Source: a virus (Duplodnaviria; Caudoviricetes). Taken from it: a DNA stretch of 44,492 nucleotides. Below the pieces are notes generated by a model. It was not told where the DNA came from. It saw nothing but the letters and a program-made list of their open reading frames with translations, and made no database searches. Both the position numbers and the translations under genes were made by a program. Shown here piece after piece: positions 1 through 42,184 of the stretch (position 1 is its first letter; the number at the start of each line of letters is the position of its first letter). The stretch lies in IMG/VR virus record IMGVR_UViG_3300033480_000005, positions 1 through 44,492 of that record; one strand, 5' to 3'.

Positions 1-115
1 CGCGCCTGCGATGTTCGCGCCTGCGAGGTTCGCGCCTGCGAGGTCCGCGCCTATGAGATTCGCGCCTGCGAGGTCCGCGCGTGTGAGGTCCGCGCATGCG
101 AGGTCCGCGCCTGCG
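1..115. repeat. Terminal overlap, left copy (identical to 44378-44492); circular-assembly signature
   Basis: Direct comparison of the two ends: cgcgcctgcgatgttcgcg...ccgcgcctgcg, 115 nt identical. Confidence 0.9.
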
Positions 116-336
116 AGGTTCGCGCCTGCGAGGTTCGCGCCTGCGAGGTCCGCGCCTATGAGATTCGCGCCTGCGAGGTCCGCGCGTGTGAGGTCCGCGC
201 ATGCGAGGTCCGCGCCTGCGAGGTTCGCGCGTGTGAGCGATCTTCCTTCCTTTAAAGCTATCCCAACAAGATCTTTTAAAGTTGCGGCTTCAGCGGAAAA
301 GATCACCTCGTTGGTAAAACGATTACGTATTTTCAT
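1..336 (-). CDS. Pentapeptide-repeat protein, N-terminal part (continues at 44377 across the circular join)
   Basis: Not in ORF track. ATG at 336 reads MKIRNRFTNEVIFSAEAATLKDLVGIALKEGRSLTRANLAGADLACADL..., i.e. A(D/N)Lxx repeats encoded by 15-nt units; in frame with 43961-44377. Confidence 0.9.
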   Translation of the reverse strand, partial: MKIRNRFTNEVIFSAEAATLKDLVGIALKEGRSLTRANLAGADLACADLTRADLAGANLIGADLAGANLAGANLAGADLACADLTRADLAGANLIGADLAGANLAGANIAGA

Positions 337-338
337 GT

Positions 339-533
339 CTATTTAACCTTGTTCAATTCGTGCAATACACCTATCACCCTTGTCAACGACTCACGGCATT
401 CCTTGAGTTGCTTTTCAGCATCACGCCATCGACCTTCAATGTCGAAGTAGGCTGTTCGCCAGTTGCCGGCGCATTTACGCCAGCACTTGACTGCATGCCG
501 GGATTTCTTGGCGACATGTTTCCATACGAGCAC
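339..533 (-). CDS. Small hypothetical protein
   Basis: Fills the gap between co-oriented genes; purine-rich RBS upstream; start and frame uncertain. Confidence 0.45.
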   Translation of the reverse strand: MLVWKHVAKKSRHAVKCWRKCAGNWRTAYFDIEGRWRDAEKQLKECRESLTRVIGVLHELNKVK

Positions 534-539
534 ACTTTC

Positions 540-1118
540 CTATCCTTCCTCGGATTCGGTGAAACATTCCGGCATTGCGGATATGTCCCAATCTGGATCC
601 GTGATAATCCAAGTACAGTCTTTCTCTACCGCGAAAGTATTCATGATCTTTCGTCGCCAGTTGAAGGAACCACCAGGGAAGGCGGCAGTAGGCTTTCCTA
701 CATTCCACATCCCGGGGGCTATAATTCGGTTTAGTGGAACGCTAAGAATTCTGGCATTGCTTAGTTCGACAACGAATATCCATACCTTAGTAAAGGTTGT
801 TTCTTGGAGTCTTAGGTATTGGTCTCGATAGTGAAGATCGAAACCATGAACCAATTCATGCCACCCTCCCCACATAACGGGTGCATCTTTCGTTTTAACC
901 TCTACCCATCGGCGGCCATTAGGATTCGAGATGTCGAAGTCGGCAAGCACCGTGCAAAAACCGTTGTCGTTCTCAATCCTTGGCGCTCTTTCTCCATCGG
1001 GTCCGACAAAATCCTTGCTCGATATGATTGAACATCGACAACGTTTTAGAAGCATGGCTACAAGACTTTCCCCAAACTTCCCCCGTTCAACCTCCTTGGA
1101 GGTTCTGTCGTAACTCAT
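540..1118 (-). CDS. PD-(D/E)XK-superfamily (restriction-endonuclease-like) nuclease
   Basis: GKFGESLV ... LADFDI ... WVEVKTK matches the E...(P/A)D...EVK motif; ATGA overlap with the upstream methyltransferase. Confidence 0.7.
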   Translation of the reverse strand: MSYDRTSKEVERGKFGESLVAMLLKRCRCSIISSKDFVGPDGERAPRIENDNGFCTVLADFDISNPNGRRWVEVKTKDAPVMWGGWHELVHGFDLHYRDQYLRLQETTFTKVWIFVVELSNARILSVPLNRIIAPGMWNVGKPTAAFPGGSFNWRRKIMNTFAVEKDCTWIITDPDWDISAMPECFTESEEG

Positions 1119-1684
1119 GCTTCATTACCCCATCTTGTCCAGTTTCTTCTATTCCCTTCAGAAATAAGGTCAGCAGGGCGATTGCGGGCGAATAGTTCGA
1201 TGTATGGTCCCGAAGAAAGACTTTCGATTATGTTGTAGAATTCAACTGGCTTTGCGCTATGTTTGCTGCGGGGCCACTGAAAGGCATGCCCGCGCTGGTT
1301 ATATCTTTCAAGACCCTTTTTACCCTTCTCTGCCAGGATTAGGATTTCTGTAGAGGGTCTTAGCCAACGCCCAATTCCAAGACGTTCGCCCTTGAACCAA
1401 ACTATTTCACCAACCCATCTGAACCCCCAGGCATCAAGGACACAATGGGGAGCAGCTTCACGGATCATTGGCCATGTGGTCCACATCCATAGATGTGCAC
1501 CGTCTGGCAAGGCGAGTTTTCCAACTGGTAGCCTACAGATATCGTCTACAGACATAGTGGAATATTCGTGCCCAACCCCACCATCACATGCTTTATCGTT
1601 ATAACTCCAAGGAGGGTCGGCATAGATGCACCCGAATTTACCAAATCCAGAATCCAAACACGGAAGTAAACCTTCGGCCTGCAT
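1115..1684 (-). CDS. MT-A70 family N6-adenine methyltransferase
   Basis: IYADPPW, YSTMS, LWMWTT, WGF..VW.K, HSAKP and IELFAR motifs characteristic of MT-A70. Confidence 0.92.
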   Translation of the reverse strand: MQAEGLLPCLDSGFGKFGCIYADPPWSYNDKACDGGVGHEYSTMSVDDICRLPVGKLALPDGAHLWMWTTWPMIREAAPHCVLDAWGFRWVGEIVWFKGERLGIGRWLRPSTEILILAEKGKKGLERYNQRGHAFQWPRSKHSAKPVEFYNIIESLSSGPYIELFARNRPADLISEGNRRNWTRWGNEA

Positions 1685-1693
1685 CTCTATTTC

Positions 1694-1954
1694 CTATAGA
1701 TGAACAAAAACCCCGGCGAGACCCGGACCATCCGAGTTTTTATTCCCGCCGGGGTAAACGGAAGAAAGGGGGAGAATGAGCGAAATAGAGGGCCGGGACT
1801 TTGGGGTTATTGAGTGAGTTTGGGTCGACAGGCTAAATGGAAATCGTATTCGTCCCGGCCCGAAGGGTGAGTAAAGACAAGGCCCCGGCGATGCATCCCG
1901 GGGCTTAAACGACCCGCAGCAAAACCGGATACCAACCGCCAACACGCCAACCAC
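1694..1954 (-). CDS. Putative leader ORF crossing hairpin array 2
   Basis: GTG preceded by GGAGAGGG; stops about 10 nt before the MTase ATG; sequence does not look like a folded protein. Confidence 0.35.
   Translation of the reverse strand: MVGVLAVGIRFCCGSFKPRDASPGPCLYSPFGPGRIRFPFSLSTQTHSITPKSRPSISLILPLSSVYPGGNKNSDGPGLAGVFVHL
1706..1755 (-). terminator. Terminator-like large-loop stem upstream of the MTase gene
   Basis: 9-bp perfect GC stem (12 bp with G-U on the - strand) followed by a U tract (plus-strand A run 1706-1710). Confidence 0.55.
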
Positions 1955-2005
1955 GTTCCCTCTCCGACTTCTCTTCTTGCACGCCCCCTACCCCCCTAAG
2001 GCGTG
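1706..2005 (-). ncRNA. Hairpin array 2: putative structured antisense RNA(s)
   Basis: Stems 1710-1718/1747-1755, 1790-1799/1852-1861, 1882-1888/1898-1904 and 1980-1985/2000-2005; G-U extensions favour the - strand; loops and linkers are complementary to phage gene starts. Confidence 0.6.
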
Positions 2006-2011
2006 GTCCCA

Positions 2012-2225
2012 CCTACGAACGAACTACGACGACTCTACCAACTCCACGTAGAGCATCTTGGCTGATTCCTCTGCCAGCCAATTGCGTTCGGCCATGGAAA
2101 GTTGCTTCAATTCCACGATCGTCACGGGACGACCTGGGATATCGAAGAATTTCTTTATGGCCGAAATGCGAGTTATCTTCTCCAAGATGAACCTCCTCTA
2201 ATGATTGTTGCCTACGAACGAACTA
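2012..2225. repeat. 15-bp direct repeat CCTACGAACGAACTA (2012-2026 and 2211-2225)
   Basis: Exact copies; on the - strand each begins with the TAG stop of consecutive genes. Confidence 0.9.
2024..2185 (-). CDS. 53-aa hypothetical protein (MEKITRISAIKKFFDIPGRPVTIVELKQLSMAERNWLAEESAKMLYVELVESS)
   Basis: Not in ORF track; TTG start with strong AGAGGAGG RBS; fills the gap. Confidence 0.75.
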   Translation of the reverse strand: MEKITRISAIKKFFDIPGRPVTIVELKQLSMAERNWLAEESAKMLYVELVESS

Positions 2226-3074
2226 TCCGTTGCTTCCCGGTTCCGGTGGCTCCTCTGCCATCGATGCGGGTCTATTAAGGTCCAGGCTTCTCTTCACTCC
2301 TGGACTCCCGTTATTGTTTTCGCCGAAGATTTCCTCAACCGTAGAAGACTCCTCATTGATTGCCGTAGCGAATCCTCTAAGTATGGCAATGTCTTCGGCA
2401 TTGATATCGCTAACGTTATTTCGATTCAATTTGTGGAGGATCTGTTCCTCTGTTACTCCCTTCGTACGGAACCATTTGATGGACTGTTCACGTTTTTTTA
2501 GGACATCTGAGTTCTTCCCGACCACACGATCCATGGCAGCCTGAAGTACCGGCTTCCATACCGTCTGGGGAACAACCTTGAAGATACTGTTACGGAAGGC
2601 GATAGAAGCCGCAGCGTTGCATGTCATAAGGATCATGTCATCGTTGTAACGGCGACCATCCTTGCTGGTGATTCGTCGTTTCACTTCGGACGATACCGCC
2701 ACGTTTGATTCTAGGTCGTGGCAGACAGATGCGACGGTGACTTCCTTCTGTCCTATGTCCATCACCCGGGAAGCAACGCGCATATTGCCCCATGAGTTGG
2801 CGACGATCTCAGCTAGTCGTACTGACGGCCCCGTGATCGACTTGCCACCACGAGGCATGACGTAATAACATTCCGCCGCCGATTCTTCCGTATCTAGCGC
2901 GATAGCTGCTATCTTCCGTTTGCATGCGGTCAACTCTCGGGGGAACCTTTTGGCCGTGCTTATTTGCATATCGATCTCAGCACGACTAATCTGTTCCAGT
3001 GCATTCCCCTGGGTTACCGCTGGTAGCACTTCTACCTGTTGGGTATCTTCGAATTCGTCTCGCATGGTTCTCAC
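2223..3074 (-). CDS. Putative single-strand annealing/recombination protein
   Basis: EIDxQIxTAKRFPR and GPSVRLAE..WGN motifs of a widespread phage family; directly downstream of a Cas4-like exonuclease (Red-like pair position). Confidence 0.55.
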   Translation of the reverse strand: MRTMRDEFEDTQQVEVLPAVTQGNALEQISRAEIDMQISTAKRFPRELTACKRKIAAIALDTEESAAECYYVMPRGGKSITGPSVRLAEIVANSWGNMRVASRVMDIGQKEVTVASVCHDLESNVAVSSEVKRRITSKDGRRYNDDMILMTCNAAASIAFRNSIFKVVPQTVWKPVLQAAMDRVVGKNSDVLKKREQSIKWFRTKGVTEEQILHKLNRNNVSDINAEDIAILRGFATAINEESSTVEEIFGENNNGSPGVKRSLDLNRPASMAEEPPEPGSNG

Positions 3075-4120
3075 TCCTTCCTTTTTAGATAACTTTGAGG
3101 AATTACGATTACCGCCCCTTTAGTACGATCTTTGAATCGTTCCTTTCCAGCCTTGAGAGTAGACCCGTCCTGATTCAGTTCCTTCCATTTGTGGGAGTAC
3201 TTGTCTTCCAAGTCACCGATTCTTACCTCGGCGCATTCGAGGAACTCCTCTTGTGTGAGGATGTCTCCCACGGCGTTGAATGCCTCGCAGACATTAGCCA
3301 CTTGCCGCAATGTCCTCTGAGCGAGTGTCCAGCCAGGAATCTCCGTGCCTTCCTGGATCATCTCCCGGGCGTGGTTCCGGACGGCCTTCGCCCATGGTTC
3401 AATCATCTGGGCGAATTCCAGAGCCTTAGCTACCTTGGTAGGGTCAAGGACCGCGAGCGATTCCTTGGTAGCCGGGAGAACGTTCATCACCTCTTCCCGG
3501 AACTCGGGGCAAATAGACTTACCTCGGCAATAACGGCAGGCCGTTGCGCTGGGGCGAAGAATCTCCGGATGCTCGAAGGCAATATTTATGATCTTTTGGA
3601 TTTCGTCCGCGATCTTTTCCGGATGGGAGTAGGTTCCTATGAATTCCGTCTCCTCTCGGGGCTGGTAGACCCATACCGCAGCACGAGGAACGGCAAACTC
3701 CTGCATGGCAGCCCCGGCATAGGCTCTGGCCTGAAGTTCCACGGTATCTGTCCCAACTGGAATGCGCCCAAACTTGTTCTCTACAATGCGAACCTCACTG
3801 GGGTAGATACCCACGATATCGCAAGTTCCCCAGGTAACGGGTTCGTTGTCCTCGCCCCACAGAACCATGGTTTCTTCGTAGAGTACTTTAGAAGCCCCAG
3901 CCAACTTGTCGGCAGCGTATGTCCGTGCATTATCCACGGCATGCCGTTGTTCGTCGTTTAACCCCTCAAGTGAAATCGTTGGTTTGGTAGCGGAATGAAG
4001 AGTAGTTCCTTCAGCGGCTTCATCCGAAGACTCATCAGCCCTAAGCCCTTCGGTCATGCGATATGATCCGGGGCATAGTCTGAGGCGAGGAAGTTGCGAA
4101 GGCCCGCAGGGGTGATGCAT
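3071..4120 (-). CDS. DUF2800-type Cas4-like PD-(D/E)XK exonuclease
   Basis: N-terminal PS...CPGS, A.EGT.LH, WGTCD, ENKFG, Q..AYA and C-terminal CRYC.....CP (4-Cys Fe-S pattern). Confidence 0.85.
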   Translation of the reverse strand: MHHPCGPSQLPRLRLCPGSYRMTEGLRADESSDEAAEGTTLHSATKPTISLEGLNDEQRHAVDNARTYAADKLAGASKVLYEETMVLWGEDNEPVTWGTCDIVGIYPSEVRIVENKFGRIPVGTDTVELQARAYAGAAMQEFAVPRAAVWVYQPREETEFIGTYSHPEKIADEIQKIINIAFEHPEILRPSATACRYCRGKSICPEFREEVMNVLPATKESLAVLDPTKVAKALEFAQMIEPWAKAVRNHAREMIQEGTEIPGWTLAQRTLRQVANVCEAFNAVGDILTQEEFLECAEVRIGDLEDKYSHKWKELNQDGSTLKAGKERFKDRTKGAVIVIPQSYLKRKE

Positions 4121-4123
4121 AAC

Positions 4124-4372
4124 TCACCCCCTCACATCCACAAGTTGGCCAGTAGGGGATTCCTTCTCCTCGGGAAGTTGATGGAGGAATGAAAGGATTT
4201 CTTCGAATGCTGGTATAGCCTTACGATCTATGTAGAATGCTAAATGATGATCGAAGATGGCCTGTACGTAAGGATTGCCTTCTCTGTCTGTGACAACAGA
4301 GACATCCGCATGAACCTTGGATCGTGACCTCTGGTGATATCCTACCGATATTGAGTTTTCCATGTATGTCAC
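4124..4372 (-). CDS. Hypothetical protein
   Basis: Strong AGGAAAGGAAGG RBS; tiles the operon; start is GTG 4372 or ATG 4363. Confidence 0.7.
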   Translation of the reverse strand: MTYMENSISVGYHQRSRSKVHADVSVVTDREGNPYVQAIFDHHLAFYIDRKAIPAFEEILSFLHQLPEEKESPTGQLVDVRG

Positions 4373-4393
4373 CCTTCCTTTCCTATGCCTGTC

Positions 4394-4552
4394 CTATGTC
4401 TGGTCCCTATCGTCTTCGAAAACGTGGTCCTCAATCATCTCTGGATCTATTGGTAGAAATGAGGTGTACGGAGTACATGATGGACAATTGCGATCGTCCA
4501 TTTCTTCATCCAGAAGAACTGGGAAAATTACTCCGCATTCGGGACAACGCAT
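4394..4552 (-). CDS. Small zinc-ribbon protein (MRCPECG...CPSC)
   Basis: Two CxxC pairs; GGAGA RBS; true start reassigned to 4552, 3 nt after the upstream stop. Confidence 0.7.
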   Translation of the reverse strand: MRCPECGVIFPVLLDEEMDDRNCPSCTPYTSFLPIDPEMIEDHVFEDDRDQT

Positions 4553-4554
4553 GG

Positions 4555-5232
4555 CTATCTCCCGTGTTTCTTCAGGTACCAACGCAACCGCGATAATTGC
4601 CATTTTTGTTCGGCGGCCCCTGCGGCCCCTGCGGCGGCCCTTGCGGCCCCTGCGGCCCATGCGGCCCTTGCGGCCCCTGCGGCCCCTGCGGCCCCTGCGG
4701 CCCCTGCGGCCCATGCGGCGGCCCCTGCGGCCCATGCGGCGGCCCCTGCGGCCCATGCGGCCCATGCGGCCCCTGCGGCCCATGCGGCCCATGCGGCCCA
4801 TGCGGCCCACCCTGCGGCCCTTGCGTCGTCCCTTGCGGCGTTTAAAGTTGCTATATCAATTTCGCCACGGGCAAATTTCCGTGCCGCTTCTATAGCCTCA
4901 CGGGGCCGTTTGTCTTCGGGTCGTTCCTTCTCGAAGAACTTCAAGACATGTTCGGCGCAATCTGCTGCGTAGAGTCGCAACGCGCAATCGTCCAGGAACA
5001 CATTCCGTTCGATTGCCCAAATGCGATCTGCGGCCGGAACCTTCTTGAGCCCAAGGATGTCTATGGCCGTGAGTTTCTTTTTACGACCAAAAATCTCGGT
5101 CAATACCTCGCGGCTGTATCCCGGACACGGACCCCATGACAGCACGTCATCGATGGTTACGGATACCATCCGGTTCGACGTGCGTTTCGTATCCGGTTTC
5201 CTCGTCACAACACTACGCACCTTCCACCTCAC
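4555..5232 (-). CDS. Imm5-like phage protein with Ala/Trp/Gly repeat tail (start may be ATG 5169)
   Basis: [15 protein letters not shown]...P.D.RPR.AIEAAR..A.G motif, then AAW/AAG repeats and E.KWQ. Confidence 0.8.
4612..4822. repeat. Coding tandem repeat of 9/12-bp units GCGGCCC(C/A/T)T
   Basis: Visible tandem array encoding AAW/AAG/AAR; unit lengths are multiples of 3. Confidence 0.9.
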
Positions 5233-5479
5233 TTCCGATTTTCACCGCCCACGTCGCGGCAAGTCTTCCCGTCAGACGGTCCTTTCGTGGTAGCATCCGG
5301 ATCACCACTCCCTTGCGCTCCATGCTCGCCAGCCTCTTGTGGGCTCCTGATACGTATTGATCCAATTCCGCCCCCGTCGAGGCGGTGCCAATCGCCTTCA
5401 TGGCTGCGATTACGGACCGTTCGACCACGGGCAATCGCGGCTTTATTGCCCTGTATGCGAGCACGCTTGTTTGCTGCAT
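5213..5479 (-). CDS. Small winged-HTH DNA-binding protein
   Basis: TS..AY..I...L....R.V...TGAEL....HKRLA.ME.KG.V.....R....TGR.A..W pattern typical of phage wHTH proteins; AGAGGATAGG RBS. Confidence 0.7.
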   Translation of the reverse strand: MQQTSVLAYRAIKPRLPVVERSVIAAMKAIGTASTGAELDQYVSGAHKRLASMERKGVVIRMLPRKDRLTGRLAATWAVKIGSEVEGA

Positions 5480-6323
5480 TCCTATCCTCTTTCTTCCGTT
5501 GTATGTATGCTTTTATGTCCTGGTCCGCCTCTCGACCTATCCTCTGAATAAACGTTGTAAGACATGGACCGAAGTATAAAAGCATCCACTCCTTCATTGG
5601 TTCATTTGTCACCATATTGACGGTAGCTGAATATGTACATGCTCGAGCCTCTCCAAACTCGGGCGATATGACATACTCGCGGAACAGCCACTCCAGCAAT
5701 TCGTTATGCAAATGCTGGAGGTCGACGTTTTTTCTTCCCACCTCCCTATTCCAATGGGAGGCCACGATTGTTATCCTTTCATCCAACAGGCAGATCATTA
5801 GAGGGAGAATTGATCGATACCACGCGCCACATCTGGTGATGCTGTTGTCACCGGATATTTGCCCGTGAGCCCTAATCAGACATGGTACCGACCATTGTAG
5901 AGTCCCTTTGTCTAATGTTCCGGTAACATCATAATGGACCTTATCGGACCGTACACAGGTCAGAGTAATTCGTTTGATAGTGTTCGTCATCAACTCCAGA
6001 GTGATAGGCGAACATCTGTTCTCAAAAAACCGTAGCCCCCGTGACAAACTTCGCGATCCAGTGGGTACCTCGGGGGCTACGGAGGCCAGAGCGACCTCCG
6101 CTCGGGCCGTTCGTGGACAAAGATGGCCGCAGTCTCTTGTAGTGGTTCTGTGGGTCGAGGCTGCGGCCTGCCCCTGGGTGTCAGGGGCTGTCAGAGTAGT
6201 GAGATCGGAGTTAAAAGCCCCAGCTCCCATGGAAAGGTAAACCATATGACCTGTCTCGATATTGGCAGGCTGGGAGCCGGGACCTATTCTTCCAGGATCG
6301 AGACAACTAAGAAACTCACTCAT
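5229..6323 (-). CDS. Hypothetical protein with two plausible in-frame starts: leader ATG 6323 and ATG 5990
   Basis: One open frame; RBS GAGGAAAGG before 6323 and GGAG before 5990; protein-like sequence only from 5990 to about 5480; 3' end overlaps the HTH gene by 251 nt. Confidence 0.5.
   Translation of the reverse strand: MSEFLSCLDPGRIGPGSQPANIETGHMVYLSMGAGAFNSDLTTLTAPDTQGQAAASTHRTTTRDCGHLCPRTARAEVALASVAPEVPTGSRSLSRGLRFFENRCSPITLELMTNTIKRITLTCVRSDKVHYDVTGTLDKGTLQWSVPCLIRAHGQISGDNSITRCGAWYRSILPLMICLLDERITIVASHWNREVGRKNVDLQHLHNELLEWLFREYVISPEFGEARACTYSATVNMVTNEPMKEWMLLYFGPCLTTFIQRIGREADQDIKAYIQRKKEDRNAANKRARIQGNKAAIARGRTVRNRSHEGDWHRLDGGGIGSIRIRSPQEAGEHGAQGSGDPDATTKGPSDGKTCRDVGGENRK
6024..6082 (-). 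terminator. Attenuator-like terminator within the leader
   Basis: Perfect 12-bp stem CCGTAGCCCCCG/CGGGGGCTACGG, 29-nt loop, followed by U6 on the - strand. Confidence 0.65.
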
Positions 6324-6337
6324 ACGATTACCTTTCC
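6024..6337 (-). ncRNA. Hairpin array 1: structured 5' leader / putative antisense RNA(s)
   Basis: Stems 6030-6041/6071-6082, 6125-6136/6157-6168, 6170-6176/6182-6188 and 6219-6229/6271-6281; alternative pairings 6231-6240/6328-6337 and 6252-6260/6297-6305. Confidence 0.65.
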
Positions 6338-6343
6338 TCGGGG

Positions 6344-6371
6344 AGGATACCATCCTGAAAAAGAGTGTCAA
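6344..6371 (-). promoter_or_regulatory. Sigma70-type leftward promoter
   Basis: TTGACA (6371-6366), 16-nt spacer ending in TGG, TATCCT (6349-6344); sits in the AT-rich divergent region. Confidence 0.7.
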
Positions 6372-6428
6372 GGAAAAAAATTATTTTTTTCGCAAGAACG
6401 TGGTATGCTCCACGGAACGGAGGTAAAC

Positions 6429-6536
6429 ATGCAGAAAGTACGAGATTGGTTCCATAGAGTGTTGTTCAAGATCCTGCTCAAGACCGGGTTGATAGATAGG
6501 TTCTTGAGCGATGACGCAGAGGATGAGCTTGGGTAG
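6429..6536 (+). CDS. 35-aa hypothetical protein
   Basis: GGAGGTAAAC-ATG; extended -10-like TGGTATGCT at 6401-6409. Confidence 0.6.
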   Translation: MQKVRDWFHRVLFKILLKTGLIDRFLSDDAEDELG

Positions 6537-6540
6537 AGAT

Positions 6541-6879
6541 ATGCTTGCAGCCTACAACTGGACCGTCGCAAAAATTTTGCTGGCCGTGGTGCTCACAAGC
6601 ATCTTACTCGGGTTTGCCGGCGTCGCGGCAGTGTCGGGGTACATATGCTGGATGTATCAATCCAGGGAATCAAAGAATAGCAGGGCTGTAACCACCTCAC
6701 AGACTGACCTTCTTCCATCTGGGAGGCCAAAAGGGTATTGGGATAAGTTTATTCGTCCGAGCACTTCCCCGACTTCGCCATCTTCTTCAAAGCGGCCATC
6801 TTCCCCTTCTTCTTCGCCTTCCTCATGGGGAGATCTTCCTGATCCGGATATTCATTCGCCCAACGATCAGCGATCTTAG
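6541..6879 (+). CDS. Putative membrane protein with Ser/Pro-rich tail
   Basis: Hydrophobic ILLAVVLTSILLGFAGVAAVSGYICW segment; the tail is antisense to 6749-6928. Confidence 0.5.
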   Translation: MLAAYNWTVAKILLAVVLTSILLGFAGVAAVSGYICWMYQSRESKNSRAVTTSQTDLLPSGRPKGYWDKFIRPSTSPTSPSSSKRPSSPSSSPSSWGDLPDPDIHSPNDQRS

Positions 6880-6928
6880 GATGCTTCATCCACATGAATC
6901 GGCGTTGCTTTTCAGACTGAAAGGGCAT
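6749..6928 (-). CDS. 59-aa basic phage protein (MPFQSEKQRRFMWMKHPKIADRW...)
   Basis: Not in ORF track; MPFxSxxQRR..HP.IA..W is a recurrent phage morphogenesis-region motif; TAATG coupling to the upstream gene. Confidence 0.8.
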   Translation of the reverse strand: MPFQSEKQRRFMWMKHPKIADRWANEYPDQEDLPMRKAKKKGKMAALKKMAKSGKCSDE

Positions 6929-8529
6929 TACTGATTTCCTCCTGCAAGAATTGCCCGCATGACCTGATTGGGAATTACCCTTTTGGCATACGGTGCTCCT
7001 GCGATCCGAATTCCCTTGGGCGCTGAATGCTGCAAGACTGCTTCAGCGACTCTACCAGCGACATCTGCGGCCCGGGTACCAGCTCCTATCGTCCCTCCCC
7101 ATCCTAATCCAAGCCACTTGCGTAGCTCTCGTCCTCCTACTCCAGTGAAATACCGATCCATTTCATTTGAGAATTTCGTACCCTTGGCTCGTTCCCCTTG
7201 CGCGATATCTCGTTCGAGTCGGCGACGAATGAGCGTTTCCTTATAGGGGCGAATCTTCTCGATGGGTTCCGCGATGGCGTTCATGATCGCGTTTGATGCG
7301 ACTTTCGCATCAGTGCTCGTCCCCTGTCCTGCAATCAGGTTTGCCGTCGCCTTCTGTTCAGCGTCAGACAGCACCTTTAGGTTTTCGCGCATCCATTCGC
7401 CCGTTCGTTTCGCGAGACTTTTGGCGATGTCATCAACTTCTTGTGCCGTCTTGCCCATGGCGAGCCCTTGGAGATAGCGATCGGCGTTCGCCATGGATTC
7501 GCTTCCGATTACATTCCGGAAGCCGTGCCCAAGTTCCTCCTGCCAGATTTTCCTTAGTCCCGGCACGTACTGGAGGTTCGCAGCCTTCACGCCGAAGGCG
7601 GGATGGACCACATCCGAGATCATGCGGAAGGCTGGCGTTTCCGTGCTGGAAAAAGCACGTTCGATATTCTCGGGTGTGGCTCTTTCAGCTTGCCGAATCC
7701 AACCTTCCCCGGCAACCTTGGGCGCTATCCGTTCCGCAGCTTGCGGGGGCAATCTCATGGCGACTTCGGTACCCGAGACCACACTTGAGGTTTCAGGCAT
7801 AGCCGCGAGTCGTGCCTTTGCGAGATCTTCGGCAGCCACCTTAACGGCATTGGAAGCCTCACGCGCCGCGATTTCCTTGTCTGATCCGGTGATTGCTCGT
7901 TCCAGGGCGTAAGGCATTCTCAGCGGGTTGGCCGTACCTAATTTTTTAAATATCGGTTTTGCCGCCGAGGCAACCCCTCGCAATGCACCTTCCGAAATCC
8001 CTCCTAGAGCCGTTTCAACTCCGATATCGCGTAATGCCTCGCCTCCAGTCTGCTTGAATCCAAGTAGTCTACCAAGGCCTTGTTTTGCTGATTCTGCCAG
8101 ACCACTACCGAGAGCCGCGCCACCAGCTCCAGCTGCAACAGCCCCAGGTCCAGTAGCCAATGCCGCCCCACCGGCCATAGTTCCACCAACGCCAGCGGCT
8201 ACTCCCTTACCGATGTCTGTTCCTATGTCCGTGATATCCTTCCAGTCGAAACCGGTGGGATCGAGCTTACGCCATACCTTTTCCCCAGGTCGACGAACAT
8301 TGAAGTCGTAATCCGCGCCGAGTTCCTTAACCTCGAATCCCTTTTCACGAAGATATTGCGCTGCGGCCCGTGAATTGGGAGCAAGGTTCATGACGTAGGT
8401 GCGCGGGACTTCGGGATGCTGTTCGTCGACAACGTTAGCATTTTCCTTCCTAGCATATTTGGACCAAGTGTCATCCTGAGGAACAGAAGATGCTTCCGAA
8501 CGAATATATGAATCCCATTTATCAGGCAT
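6928..8529 (-). CDS. Probable DNA-ejection / internal virion protein
   Basis: Last large gene of the structural operon; Gly/Ala-rich hydrophobic stretch (GVAAGVGGTMAGGAALATGPGAVAAG). Confidence 0.65.
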   Translation of the reverse strand: MPDKWDSYIRSEASSVPQDDTWSKYARKENANVVDEQHPEVPRTYVMNLAPNSRAAAQYLREKGFEVKELGADYDFNVRRPGEKVWRKLDPTGFDWKDITDIGTDIGKGVAAGVGGTMAGGAALATGPGAVAAGAGGAALGSGLAESAKQGLGRLLGFKQTGGEALRDIGVETALGGISEGALRGVASAAKPIFKKLGTANPLRMPYALERAITGSDKEIAAREASNAVKVAAEDLAKARLAAMPETSSVVSGTEVAMRLPPQAAERIAPKVAGEGWIRQAERATPENIERAFSSTETPAFRMISDVVHPAFGVKAANLQYVPGLRKIWQEELGHGFRNVIGSESMANADRYLQGLAMGKTAQEVDDIAKSLAKRTGEWMRENLKVLSDAEQKATANLIAGQGTSTDAKVASNAIMNAIAEPIEKIRPYKETLIRRRLERDIAQGERAKGTKFSNEMDRYFTGVGGRELRKWLGLGWGGTIGAGTRAADVAGRVAEAVLQHSAPKGIRIAGAPYAKRVIPNQVMRAILAGGNQ

Positions 8530-35994: not shown

Positions 35995-36059
35995 GATGAT
36001 GCCTCCAAAATACGTATTCCTTGGACATCCCTGCGCCGAGTTGCCACATCTATTCGCCA

Positions 36060-36260
36060 TGGGCGTACATCGTCGATATCAGATGCGGTGTGTCAAACCG
36101 ATTTTTGTAAAGGTGTAAAATCTTTGTTACACCAAAATGTAAAATGGCCGTTTTTAAGGGCGTGTGCAATTTTTGCAACATGTTTATCCAAGACAACTTA
36201 CAAAACCTAATTTTTATGATTTTAAGGGCACGGAAATTGCTAATAGTTAATCAGCGCAGA
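36060..36260. promoter_or_regulatory. AT-rich divergent control region (late leftward / early rightward promoters)
   Basis: Non-coding gap between divergent operons; TTGACA on - (36096-36091); TTTTAAGGGC twice; TGTAAA three times; TGCAA-N3-TTGCA palindrome. Confidence 0.6.
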
Positions 36261-36282
36261 TAGTGCGCGGAAAGGTAAACCG

Positions 36283-36525
36283 ATGAAGAGACCGATGACC
36301 GTCCCGATTGCCCAGCGTATAGACCAGCTTATCGAGCGTAGGGGATACAGGGCGATGGATCGTCAGATCCATGCTGCCTTCCCCGGGATGGTGAATGTCA
36401 TTACCATGATTCGGGAGGCGCGTGAGTATGCCGCGCAGCGTAGGGCGGTGGCACGCAGGAGGATCGAGGAGTTAGGATACGACGTGGACGCTGCCGAGAG
36501 GATCGCTATAAGAGGGGAGGAGTAG
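36283..36525 (+). CDS. Hypothetical protein, first gene of the rightward operon
   Basis: GGAAAGG RBS. Confidence 0.7.
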   Translation: MKRPMTVPIAQRIDQLIERRGYRAMDRQIHAAFPGMVNVITMIREAREYAAQRRAVARRRIEELGYDVDAAERIAIRGEE

Positions 36526-36527
36526 CC

Positions 36528-36989
36528 ATGACACAGCATACCCATCACATCTACTATCGACGAGTGGATGAGTTCCCTGCCCACCATCCGGATGATATCG
36601 AGATCTCAGGGACGCCGCATCCAATAGGTACCGGCGATACAGATTGGCGCAAGGTACGCAGCGATGACGGACTCGCTGAAGATCTCCGTATCGCAGGGTC
36701 GCAACGATACCATGAATGTGTCCTACTCGCGGATGCTCTCGTGATCTATCGCGCTCTCCTTGGTAGCGGACTCGTCGATGATCATTGGACTCCTGGCTCG
36801 TGGACGCTGTACACGTATGACGAGCTGGAGGCCAGCGATCCAGAGGACTATGCATATCTCTGCGACGCTCTGCAGTTATTTTCGCGCGAGGACGCCATCG
36901 CACAAGCTCGAACTCTCGTCCGCACATGCTCCGATGACACGCACGGGCATGACGTGCGAGAAGCATTAAGCGATAGGATAAAGCCATGA
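36528..36989 (+). CDS. Hypothetical acidic protein
   Basis: GGAGGAG RBS; tiles the operon. Confidence 0.75.
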   Translation: MTQHTHHIYYRRVDEFPAHHPDDIEISGTPHPIGTGDTDWRKVRSDDGLAEDLRIAGSQRYHECVLLADALVIYRALLGSGLVDDHWTPGSWTLYTYDELEASDPEDYAYLCDALQLFSREDAIAQARTLVRTCSDDTHGHDVREALSDRIKP

Positions 36990-37318
36990 CACAGCATACG
37001 CCTGGACCGTGGTATTTCGATGCAAATACCTTTGATGAGTTAGATGTTATAGTACAAAATAAATACAAAACAATAATAATTGCAGATTGTTGTGGATTAT
37101 TGAACCTTTCCCCACCTTTACAGGAAGCTATCGCCAACGCCCGTCTAATCGCCGCTGCGCCGGAGTTACTTGAGGCGCTACGGAAGGTAGTAAATATGCA
37201 CTGTGTTAAACTTCCGGTGCCGGGCGGAGAGGTCATCTATAGTTACCGTGATTACACCGGAGTTATGGATAAGGCACGCGCCGCCATCGCCAAAGCGGAA
37301 GCGGTAACCAGGAGTTAA
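36986..37318 (+). CDS. Phage protein of the HTPGPW...ANARLIAAAPELLEAL family
   Basis: Both hallmark motifs present, plus C-terminal ARAAIAKAE. Confidence 0.85.
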   Translation: MTQHTPGPWYFDANTFDELDVIVQNKYKTIIIADCCGLLNLSPPLQEAIANARLIAAAPELLEALRKVVNMHCVKLPVPGGEVIYSYRDYTGVMDKARAAIAKAEAVTRS

Positions 37319-37325
37319 TTAAATC

Positions 37326-37538
37326 ATGTGTGATTGTCGAATTGTTAAATCTACACAACGCGTAGGAACCATAACTGGAGAACTTGTCCCCCAAGGAGAA
37401 ATCATCGTCTATTGCCCGTTGCATGCGGCTTCTCTTGAGCTTCTCACAGCACTCAGAGAACTCCGTGCATGGGTCGCGTTTGATCATCCATTGCGGTCCA
37501 AGGTAGATGCCATCATCGCCAAAGCGGAAGGCAAGTAG
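37326..37538 (+). CDS. Related small protein (C.C...YCPLHAAS.ELL.AL...IAKAEG)
   Basis: Shares its C-terminal module with the upstream gene; AGGAG RBS. Confidence 0.75.
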   Translation: MCDCRIVKSTQRVGTITGELVPQGEIIVYCPLHAASLELLTALRELRAWVAFDHPLRSKVDAIIAKAEGK

Positions 37539-37546
37539 CCATATCC

Positions 37547-37780
37547 ATGCGTGTCCCGAGTCTGAAGTTGAGACTAAAACCTGGGAAGCGCCAACTTAAG
37601 TGGCATCGTCTGTACGAACGATGTGCGTTGTGCTATACAGGGGATCCCACGAGGCCGATGACAATGTTTGAGGGTGTGGTTCCTGGTCACGGTCCGGCAT
37701 GCAAACGTTGCTACAATCGTTGGTACTACAGGGCGCATCCAGAACCTTGGATAAAGGCTGGACTTAAGAAGCCGAAGTAG
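37547..37780 (+). CDS. Basic zinc-finger-like protein
   Basis: CALC ... CKRCY pairs. Confidence 0.6.
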   Translation: MRVPSLKLRLKPGKRQLKWHRLYERCALCYTGDPTRPMTMFEGVVPGHGPACKRCYNRWYYRAHPEPWIKAGLKKPK

Positions 37781-37792
37781 TTAGATTTATGA

Positions 37793-37830
37793 CAATCCCC
37801 CTGGCATAAGCTGGGGGGATTTCTTTTAAA
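37793..37830 (+). terminator. Rho-independent terminator of the rightward operon
   Basis: AATCCCCC-TGG/CTG-GGGGGATT stem with G-U pairs on +, followed by TCTTTT. Confidence 0.8.
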
Positions 37831-37946
37831 AACCTAAAACCTTCACATTTGCCCCACAATCGATTTTCTTTGGCTTTAATGATACATGTATCGTTAGGAC
37901 TCATTATTTTCGAACCTGGGCCAATTCTGTGCGTTTTACGGCCATA

Positions 37947-38447
37947 TCAGAACGGAACGTCATCAACCAAGTCGGAGTTTGCGAAGTTTTCAGATGGGAT
38001 TGGATTTAGAGCTTTGGTGTCAGGAAAGATCCTTTCTACAACCACTTCGACCACGTCCGGGTTCTCGGACAAAACATTCTCTAAGAGTGTACTTTTCCCG
38101 GTGCGGCGTTTGAACTCAGAGAGGCTCATTTCCTCTTCATCTTTGTAGTTCCTATGTCTAATGTGCGCCTCATTTTCTCGAAGCACATCCTGCAACATTT
38201 CTAAGCTACACCATGGGAGGCCAGTTTTGGAATCTTCGCCGTTGAACGGGACGAAAGATTTCTTGGAGGGGCAATATAGCCCGTCCCATTCGATTATTCC
38301 CTCGACGCCATTCGAGGATGTGAACTTGCTACCCCGTATCGTGCGGAGTCTTGCTATTAGCCGTTCTCGGTCGCTTGTCGGTTTCGGTGCCGAATTCGAA
38401 GATACCGGGTGTTCTACGGGTGGTAGTTGGCGTCGATACCTGGCCAT
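37947..38447 (-). CDS. Replication-associated hypothetical protein with SSB-like acidic tail
   Basis: Follows the initiator; ends DLVDDVPF. Confidence 0.55.
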   Translation of the reverse strand: MARYRRQLPPVEHPVSSNSAPKPTSDRERLIARLRTIRGSKFTSSNGVEGIIEWDGLYCPSKKSFVPFNGEDSKTGLPWCSLEMLQDVLRENEAHIRHRNYKDEEEMSLSEFKRRTGKSTLLENVLSENPDVVEVVVERIFPDTKALNPIPSENFANSDLVDDVPF

Positions 38448-41561: not shown

Positions 41562-41795
41562 TTACTCCCCCTTGCCCTCGGCGGTCTTCACCAATCTTGC
41601 GGCGCTCTCTTCCCGCCACTTGCGGTTCCACGTTGCCACCTTGGCCCATGCGATTAGATCGCGCAGGCTTTCAAGAGCGCCTAAGGACAACTCAACCCGG
41701 TAAGTTCGATCGCCATTCGCAGCAGCGATGCGAGCGTCGATCCACCGTTCCCAACTCGGCAGGTTCTTGTACGCCTTTGCGGTAACGATCTTCAT
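41562..41795 (-). CDS. Hypothetical protein
   Basis: AAGGAG RBS; tiles the operon. Confidence 0.7.
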   Translation of the reverse strand: MKIVTAKAYKNLPSWERWIDARIAAANGDRTYRVELSLGALESLRDLIAWAKVATWNRKWREESAARLVKTAEGKGE

Positions 41796-41797
41796 CG

Positions 41798-42184
41798 CTA
41801 CTCCTTCCCTTCCGCTCCCCCCTTCGTCTGCTCGGGCGAAGCCTCTTTTAATTCTTCAGGAAAAGCATGTTCCCGACATACATAATTTCCGCGCCCGCTA
41901 CTGAATAAAATTGCCTGTTTATCACAACAGGCACAACGCAATGCCACAGAGGATTCATCTTTCTGTACGGCATCCCGCAACAGCATCTCCCTCTCCCGAC
42001 ACCTCTTGCACGGCTGCGGATCGAGAACTTTGTTTTCTTCGGCTAATGCGTCATTGAGCATAGCTTCGACTCGCGCTTTCGGGAGCCGTACCATGCCAGT
42101 CCATTTCACACGGGCCATCCTTTTTCGTGTATCTTCGAGGTCCGCCTGGTCTGTTCGAATCCGTCCCTTGTCATCAGTCCACAT
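41798..42184 (-). CDS. Hypothetical protein with PQPCxxC and CxxC...GNYVC modules (start reassigned to ATG 42184)
   Basis: GAGGAG RBS; modules shared with 42174-43964. Confidence 0.65.
   Translation of the reverse strand: MWTDDKGRIRTDQADLEDTRKRMARVKWTGMVRLPKARVEAMLNDALAEENKVLDPQPCKRCREREMLLRDAVQKDESSVALRCACCDKQAILFSSGRGNYVCREHAFPEELKEASPEQTKGGAEGKE

Follow-up and report, generated by a model that had tools for sequence, protein, structure and literature searches.

To our knowledge, few phage RNAs act in trans on the genes of the phage itself, and those described have one or two targets. Guide arrays of the repeat-spacer, CRISPR-like kind are built from repeated units that flank unique spacers. 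According to the accessible parts of the sources cited here, CarZ and OppZ of Vibrio cholerae are small RNAs from the 3' ends of operons that carry an intrinsic terminator and pair with a translation start of their own transcript; CarZ pairs with the first gene, and pairing by OppZ also triggers early termination (PMC7398697). RNAs of this type are further marked by RNase E maturation, Hfq dependence, and demonstrated repression. The phage RNA C4 of P1 and P7 (RF01695), which is cut from a longer transcript, uses two single-stranded segments to pair at and beside the RBS of its target (PMC5320573, PMC2864571). In satellite phage P4, the antisense RNA CI derives from the operon transcript that it prematurely terminates; its partners, both inside the leader region, are seqA on its upstream side and seqC on its downstream side (PMC4825925). 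The accessible part of a review of phage small RNAs names single-target or host-directed RNAs (PMC12197685).

Here, we analyze an element at the end of an early gene block in a phage contig of 44,492 bases, which is the whole window of this study. On balance, the sequence makes it probable that positions 1940-1703 of the minus strand are a noncoding RNA at the 3' end of the early transcript, which would pair with the starts of the first genes and damp their translation. As with CarZ and OppZ, the element lies at the 3' end of an operon before an intrinsic-terminator-like hairpin (it would be cotranscribed from position 6344) and has predicted complementarity to a start of translation on the transcript from which it would come. 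Unlike CarZ and OppZ, it resides in a phage, is ~240 nt long, and has several separate complementary segments with at least two or three predicted targets.

The likeness to C4 is one of sequence only, with two segments (1849-1842 and 1821-1811) facing adjoining sites at 6329-6312. In contrast to C4, the element has no match to the RF01695 covariance model, exceeds the ~77 nt of C4 with its ~240 nt, and holds its two segments in one 52-nt loop on a 10-bp stem in place of three stem-loops. C4 belongs to a lysogeny or immunity setting with an antirepressor target; here, 13 plus 49 Pfam and 13 plus 35 PHROGs queries, covering a subset of the ORFs and leaving most proteins without any match, found no integrase, repressor, or antirepressor. 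The element shares a predicted logic with P4 CI, in that its pairing is proposed to cause termination, via a hairpin 240 nt past the AUG; unlike CI, it lies ~4.3 kb downstream of its main target, and its main targets are 3.3-4.5 kb upstream. Unlike CRISPR-like arrays, it has no direct repeat of at least 10 nt with both copies inside 1690-2030, and its stems share only short CCGG-rich words. In our best reading, the element would combine the geometry of CarZ and OppZ with a C4- or CI-like logic and, of C4 and CI, is a member of neither.

Early gene block of the phage contig

Family searches identify a terminase, a P22-like portal, a tail spike, and a replication initiator on the contig, whose minus strand carries nearly all genes and whose two ends are joined in the related strain L096. 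The label "early" for the gene block follows from gene content and position, and the early, middle, and late classes follow from position. Between the middle and late blocks, 36000-37950 holds plus-strand ORFs and few minus-strand genes, with no family match among those scanned. A tandem-repeat tract of 15-nt, pentapeptide-like units spans the contig ends (44354-237), and another of 9-nt Ala/Gly/Trp units lies in the Imm5-like gene (4611-4830); L096 has a different copy number or sequence in both.

A sigma-70-like promoter (6344..6371, minus strand; TTGACA-16-TATCCT with TG), the best of four sites in 1-7000 by consensus match only, likely drives the early operon. The genes that follow are a 364-codon ORF, the HTH-like gene, the Imm5-like gene, two small genes, the nuclease gene, and the genes for a 280-aa and a 53-aa protein. 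The 364-codon ORF (5229..6323, minus strand) starts at AUG 6323; its leader part has a poor coding score, and the part from ~5747 has one homologue (P0122, 47%). Over 5479-5229 (minus strand), ~83 codons of this ORF overlap the HTH-like gene in a different frame; its one homologue ends near 5480. The HTH-like gene (5213..5479, minus strand) encodes an 88-aa protein of phrog_1123, for which HTH is a lead only, taken from Atlas clusters with 13% HTH_24. For the Imm5-like gene, GTG 5220 has a strong Shine-Dalgarno sequence and overlaps the stop of the HTH-like gene; ATG 5169 has none, yet one homologue begins at its equivalent.

An earlier note on this DNA had placed a gene start at 4372, with positions 4369-4377 at that start; the start is more likely ATG 4363, which gives a 79-aa product and puts 4369-4377 at its RBS. 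The DUF2800/PD-(D/E)XK nuclease gene, called Cas4-like in that note, starts at 4120. The gene for the 280-aa protein, at 3065, belongs to phrog_3657, and the homologues of this protein are spread over many phyla and pointed to no single host. The 53-aa gene (2024..2185, minus strand) ends at 2024, directly upstream of the element, and is followed by 330 bases without a credible gene and then by an MT-A70 gene at 1684. A 15-nt direct repeat (2012-2026 and 2211-2225) flanks the 53-aa gene and begins with the stop codons of the 53-aa and 280-aa genes.

Fold and coding status of the element

The element ends in an intrinsic-terminator-like hairpin with an inner hairpin and a U tail (1703..1755; z -3.9 versus shuffles), and the U tail sets its orientation on the minus strand. 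Upstream of this hairpin, in order of transcription, stand segment S1 (1905..1940), hairpin 1 (1882..1904; z -2.6), the anti-Shine-Dalgarno-like linker S2 (1862..1881), a 10-bp stem (1861-1852 with 1799-1790) closing the 52-nt open loop (1790..1861; z -2.9), and linker S4 (1756..1789). The earlier note had described four stems; three stem-loops beat shuffles, but 2016-1975 does not (z -1.3). Over longer spans, 1650-2060 as a whole folds no better than shuffles (z 0.39), and 1915-1694 reaches z -1.9.

The segments between the stems had been taken as single stranded, and the predicted fold of 1912-1700 leaves five of the six mostly open (mean P(unpaired) 0.78-0.98); the exception is 1922-1932 in the partly paired S1 (0.44-0.52). 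Folding predicts that a purine-rich segment (1936..1990, minus strand) masks the pyrimidine linker in a long precursor, and in the 2023-1700 fold this stretch cuts the mean P(unpaired) of the segments to 0.33-0.70. The first bases of the 72-nt stem-loop 1861-1790 are GG; this is compatible with the RNase P processing that trims C4 to ~77 nt, without demonstrating it.

The element is likely noncoding, as judged from codon usage. Positions 1881-1756 are the most pyrimidine-rich of 4,437 minus-strand windows, and the linkers contain 8 G per 106 nt. The Rfam/Infernal search assigned the element to no family: the whole window has no match at gathering score, and at E up to 5 the sole match in 1600-6500 is a 15.9-bit terminator match (RF02837). 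An 86-codon ORF at 1954-1694 was considered as a gene and rejected; all 192 coding windows outscore it, it is without homologues, and 12% of shuffles contain a frame of this kind.

Complementarity to early gene starts

All six inverted matches reported in the earlier note are exact. The longest pairs 1757-1768 in linker S4 with 5489-5500 at the RBS of the HTH-like gene (12 nt). That it could be extended over the RBS and AUG of this gene is borne out, since S4 complements 5473..5500 and continues over AUG 5479 with one mismatch and one bulge (-26.2 kcal/mol); among 63 starts, 5479 is the best partner of S4. The first AUG of the operon is addressed by three separate segments. Two of them lie in the 52-nt loop and complement adjoining halves of a stretch that spans the spacer, the AUG, and the initial codons of the first ORF (6312..6329): 1811-1821 matches 6312-6322 (11 nt), on the AUG, and 1842-1849 matches 6322-6329 (8 nt). 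The third is linker 1789-1756, which pairs in two parts of 9 bp each with the first RBS and AUG (6339-6331 and 6323-6315; -22.9 kcal/mol).

Segment S1 contains 1922-1932, which matches 5189-5199 (11 nt) within a 16/18 match to 5182..5199, between GTG 5220 and ATG 5169 of the Imm5-like gene. S1 also complements 5477-5470 (8 nt, after AUG 5479), and the 5220 region is its best partner among 63 starts. The position of the 11-nt target just upstream of ATG 5169 was correctly noted, but the strong Shine-Dalgarno sequence belongs to GTG 5220; the target lies at +22..+32 if 5220 is the start and at -30..-20 if 5169 is. Linker S2 has two weak targets, the RBS of the 79-aa gene (1862-1870 with 4369-4377, 9 nt) and that of the nuclease gene (4122..4131; 1865-1872 with 4122-4129, 8 nt exact), the latter buried in a local hairpin. 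Opening the target would cost 11.3 kcal/mol at 4129-4122 and 4.3-6.6 kcal/mol at 6329-6312. Both rank low in co-folds over -60..+40 (-4.0 and -7.8), where the 6323 window includes untranscribed bases, and transcript-based co-folds for 6323 give -20 to -25. With these two targets buried in their own hairpins, binding would need nascent RNA.

Linker S4 further has 9-10 nt matches to the RBSs of 41560 and 41197, it forms its strongest contiguous helices at the RBSs of 41197 and 41795, with start regions accounting for 6 of its 10 best helices; 1789-1770 reads as the complement of an RBS and start that has no full partner in this genome. These features would suit a generic anti-Shine-Dalgarno RNA, whose C/U-rich linkers act against many purine-rich RBSs, of middle or host genes, with early starts as only some of the targets. 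We regard this as very unlikely; the longest exact matches involve non-Shine-Dalgarno sequence in the first early genes, and the seven start regions with matches of at least 9 nt are all among the 26 early and middle genes, with none among the 37 late ones.

The two loop segments are permuted relative to 6329-6312, an order that, as reasoned by hand, agrees with the segments pairing to either side of the closing stem and disagrees with one inversion event. The permutation also bears on whether the element is an inverted relic of start regions or a set of plus-strand mini-ORFs (13, 8, and 23 codons from 1776, 1810, and 1837, read by hand). Plus-strand 1757-1785 does align with the HTH-like start, including its ATG, and inverted matches of this kind occur elsewhere: the plus-strand gene start 36513-36531 and the minus-strand start 41792-41810 share a near-identical RBS, and the resulting inverted match to the RBS of 41795 spans 19 nt. 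However, one inversion would not yield the permuted loop, the pieces derive from four places over 2.2 kb, and the U tail is on the minus strand, with no plus-strand promoter match near the element. We hold such an origin to be highly improbable.

In a read-through transcript, 1790-1782 could pair in cis with the RBS of the MT-A70 gene (1685..1693, minus strand; 9 nt, 1782-1790/1685-1693), and this pairing appears in the 1912-1670 fold. In addition, 8 nt in the 3' arm of hairpin 1 could pair with the 5' arm of the terminator (1883-1890/1747-1754). Both matches favor a cis element only, a switch for read-through or translation of the MT-A70 gene and middle genes in which 1790-1782 hides the MT-A70 RBS. 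We give this exclusive reading scarcely any weight, as it leaves the 11-12 nt matches 3.3-4.5 kb upstream unexplained, and in folding the terminator still formed after removal of the 5' arm of hairpin 1. A cis switch can nevertheless coexist with antisense action in trans.

Chance and signal in the matches

We compared hand-checked start regions (-30..+18), 10 early (5220 and 5169 both counted) and 54 others. Matches of at least 11 nt occur in 3 of the 10 early regions versus 0 of the 54 others; none of 2,000 dinucleotide shuffles reaches three, and label permutation among the phage's own 64 start regions gives p 0.003. In narrower windows, the permutation p weakens to 0.022 and 0.155 (the latter for -20..+10), and the summed statistic stays at 0.005-0.013. 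Without start 5169, 2 of 9 early starts match at 11 nt or more versus 3 of 1,747 automatically called foreign start regions (P ~1e-4). Enrichment at start regions is seen for these long matches and is weak for those of 8-9 nt, which are near the purine-rich RBS background (P 0.04-0.19 against purine-matched RBSs); by length, the foreign-start comparison yields P 0.08-0.19 for the 8-nt count and 0.016-0.074 for the 9-nt count. Nor do all matches of at least 11 nt in the genome lie near gene starts; three of the five from 1694-2023 are near early starts, but 1944-1954/18974-18984 and 1913-1923/1262-1272 (11 nt each) are mid-gene.

Other intergenic regions served as a second comparison, 509 in all from 180 fetched loci and the window, with the element counted once, through L096. 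The element is the only one with two matches of at least 11 nt, and nine others have one. Stricter gene calling removes the HTH-like start and leaves the element with one such match, as in 3 others of 356 regions. Along the genome, 4 of 803 sliding windows have two matches of at least 11 nt, and all four overlap the element. A same-sense control window has a summed score of 75 versus 74 for the element, coding sequence at 5480-6000 yields two 11-nt matches to start regions, so that chance cases exist, and once the two best matches are masked, the remaining enrichment is mild (p 0.02-0.14).

Taken together, what finds support in the interpretation of the earlier note is a likely noncoding minus-strand RNA at the end of the operon, more complementary to early starts than expected from shuffles, the phage's other RBSs, 1,747 foreign starts, and 508 other intergenic regions. 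The complementarity is real for this genome and is carried by two or three matches. The element was, however, picked post hoc from a very large scan, and by our estimate, luck in such a scan could give two matches, so a post-hoc chance pick is possible. Under this explanation, chance and selection would have combined in a terminator zone before the MT-A70 gene, with C-rich, G-poor, unstructured linkers (8 G in 106 nt) as Rho-loading-like or pause elements and two lucky matches of 11-12 nt. The short matches are near background, and one 11-nt match is present in about 9 of the 508 control regions; by a rough estimate, two would then occur in ~1-2 of 10,000 regions, a rate at which scanning some 250,000 windows would turn up two-match regions many times. 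Chance alone would not account as readily for matches that include non-Shine-Dalgarno sequence, for three segments that converge on the first AUG, or for a third, 16/18 match near a start, which 2 of 400 shuffles reach (17 of 400 anywhere in the operon). The main target is, moreover, already under predicted cis RNA-structure control. We rate chance as a somewhat unlikely explanation.

The leader around the first AUG

The leader at 6345-6010 of the minus strand, which the earlier note did not mention, is strongly folded (z -4.3), with several hairpins. In its main stem (6231..6337), 6337-6320, which holds the RBS and AUG 6323, pairs with 6249-6231 (z -4.75; 0 of 200 shuffles). A terminator-like hairpin with U6 (6082-6024; z -3.2) lies inside the 364-codon frame, 240 nt past the targeted AUG, and the frame across it is open in L096 too. 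A hidden RBS and AUG combined with a terminator inside the reading frame is the layout of a translation-coupled attenuator. The leader is predicted to be attenuator-like, with the first AUG already hidden in a stem, and may itself act as an independent regulatory RNA. A 17/18 inverted match between a leader loop (6160-6143) and 3867-3850 was set aside; it is no longer than many chance pairs in the genome and lies in a module that is replaced in L096.

Relatives of the contig

Eight viral scans, one metagenome scan, and two genome scans found one true relative, L096, which is 96-99% identical, and an L096-type variant was seen in a second sequencing run. The element is identical in L096, as expected at a divergence of 7 differences over the 1,985 bases of 241-2225, and this low divergence makes the identity uninformative. 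The targets at 6312-6329, 5489-5500, 5189-5199, and 4369-4377 are likewise without change. Near the third match, a change at 5200 makes it 12 nt long, and a change at 5182 replaces a G-C pair with G-U. The 8-nt matches at 4122-4129 (to 7 nt) and 5168-5175 are shortened or broken, without compensation. With a near-identical sole relative and an invariant element, there is no covariation to draw on, a point in favor of chance.

Between 4118 and 2225, L096 has the nuclease and 280-aa genes swapped for a different gene pair, and the second start of this pair matches the element over 7 nt or less. The replacement (window 2226-4117, L096 2645-4522) is an unrelated-looking pair in reverse order, a 315-aa and then a 310-aa nuclease-like protein, with the same RBS. 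Its right border is the 15-nt sequence 2211-2225.

Searches with single proteins against viral contigs revealed no close relative through the 280-aa (one distant locus), terminase, 53-aa, or HTH-like proteins, and alignment of ORF-5990 gave no locus in genome contigs. The element has no match in phage or plasmid records, and a 24-nt pattern has 0 matches. Patterns of the stems hit five metagenome loci, namely the window itself (L095), L096, and three chance matches in coding sequence, plus four chance matches in viral sequence. Neither the 160 loci with homologues of the 280-aa protein (37-50%) nor the 11 with relatives of the 53-aa gene carry a copy of the element or leader (blastn best E 0.1-0.3), and the latter have no such element downstream. 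By eye, none of five better-scoring or structured regions of those loci, among the regions listed, resembles the element. One locus (L083, 8166-8400) has a 230-nt multi-hairpin stretch with pyrimidine-rich loops past its 53-aa homologue; the matches of this stretch within its own locus do not exceed 10 nt.

Proposed mechanism and significance

The sequence contains the complementarity, a terminator-like end, and a self-folding leader with a terminator in the first frame. Our best reading from these features favors one ~240-nt antisense RNA at the 3' end with several seed segments, which would exert delayed negative feedback on the early operon. A single transcript would run from the promoter at 6371 to ~1703, which needs read-through of 6082-6024. 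The 3' RNA would then be released or trimmed, because the purine-rich 1990-1936 would otherwise mask the linker. It would bind nascent leaders ahead of ribosome loading at AUG 6323, and blocked loading there would favor the leader terminator at 6082-6024. At 5479, the RNA would directly obstruct the RBS of the HTH-like gene. Middle genes whose RBSs are long purine tracts (41795, 41560, and 41197) may be damped as well, by the C/U-rich linkers. The feedback would be delayed because the RNA brake arises only once the operon has been transcribed to its end.

In a second form of antisense action, the element would be a multiplex silencer, a precursor cut into several short guides, each for a different early or middle gene. 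The 72-nt stem-loop would then grip the first AUG with the two segments flanking its closing stem, in a three-way junction that would explain the permuted order of the loop segments. If true, RNA alone, with no protein repressor, would time the switch of the phage from early to later expression. We consider it quite doubtful, and the polycistronic array of separate guides proposed in the earlier note finds little backing in an element that lacks direct repeats of at least 10 nt, whose short matches are near the RBS background, and whose enrichment outside the two best matches is mild.

For the single 3'-end RNA that we favor, literature searches, with subscription papers mostly outside their reach, found no published description of such an element. 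If it holds, trans-acting antisense autoregulation would occur here in a variant form not described before. The proposal makes sharp predictions, in the form of named base pairs. If true, it would mean that the phage times its early genes without a repressor, through an RNA from the 3' end of the transcript that feeds back on several starts via an attenuator-like leader.
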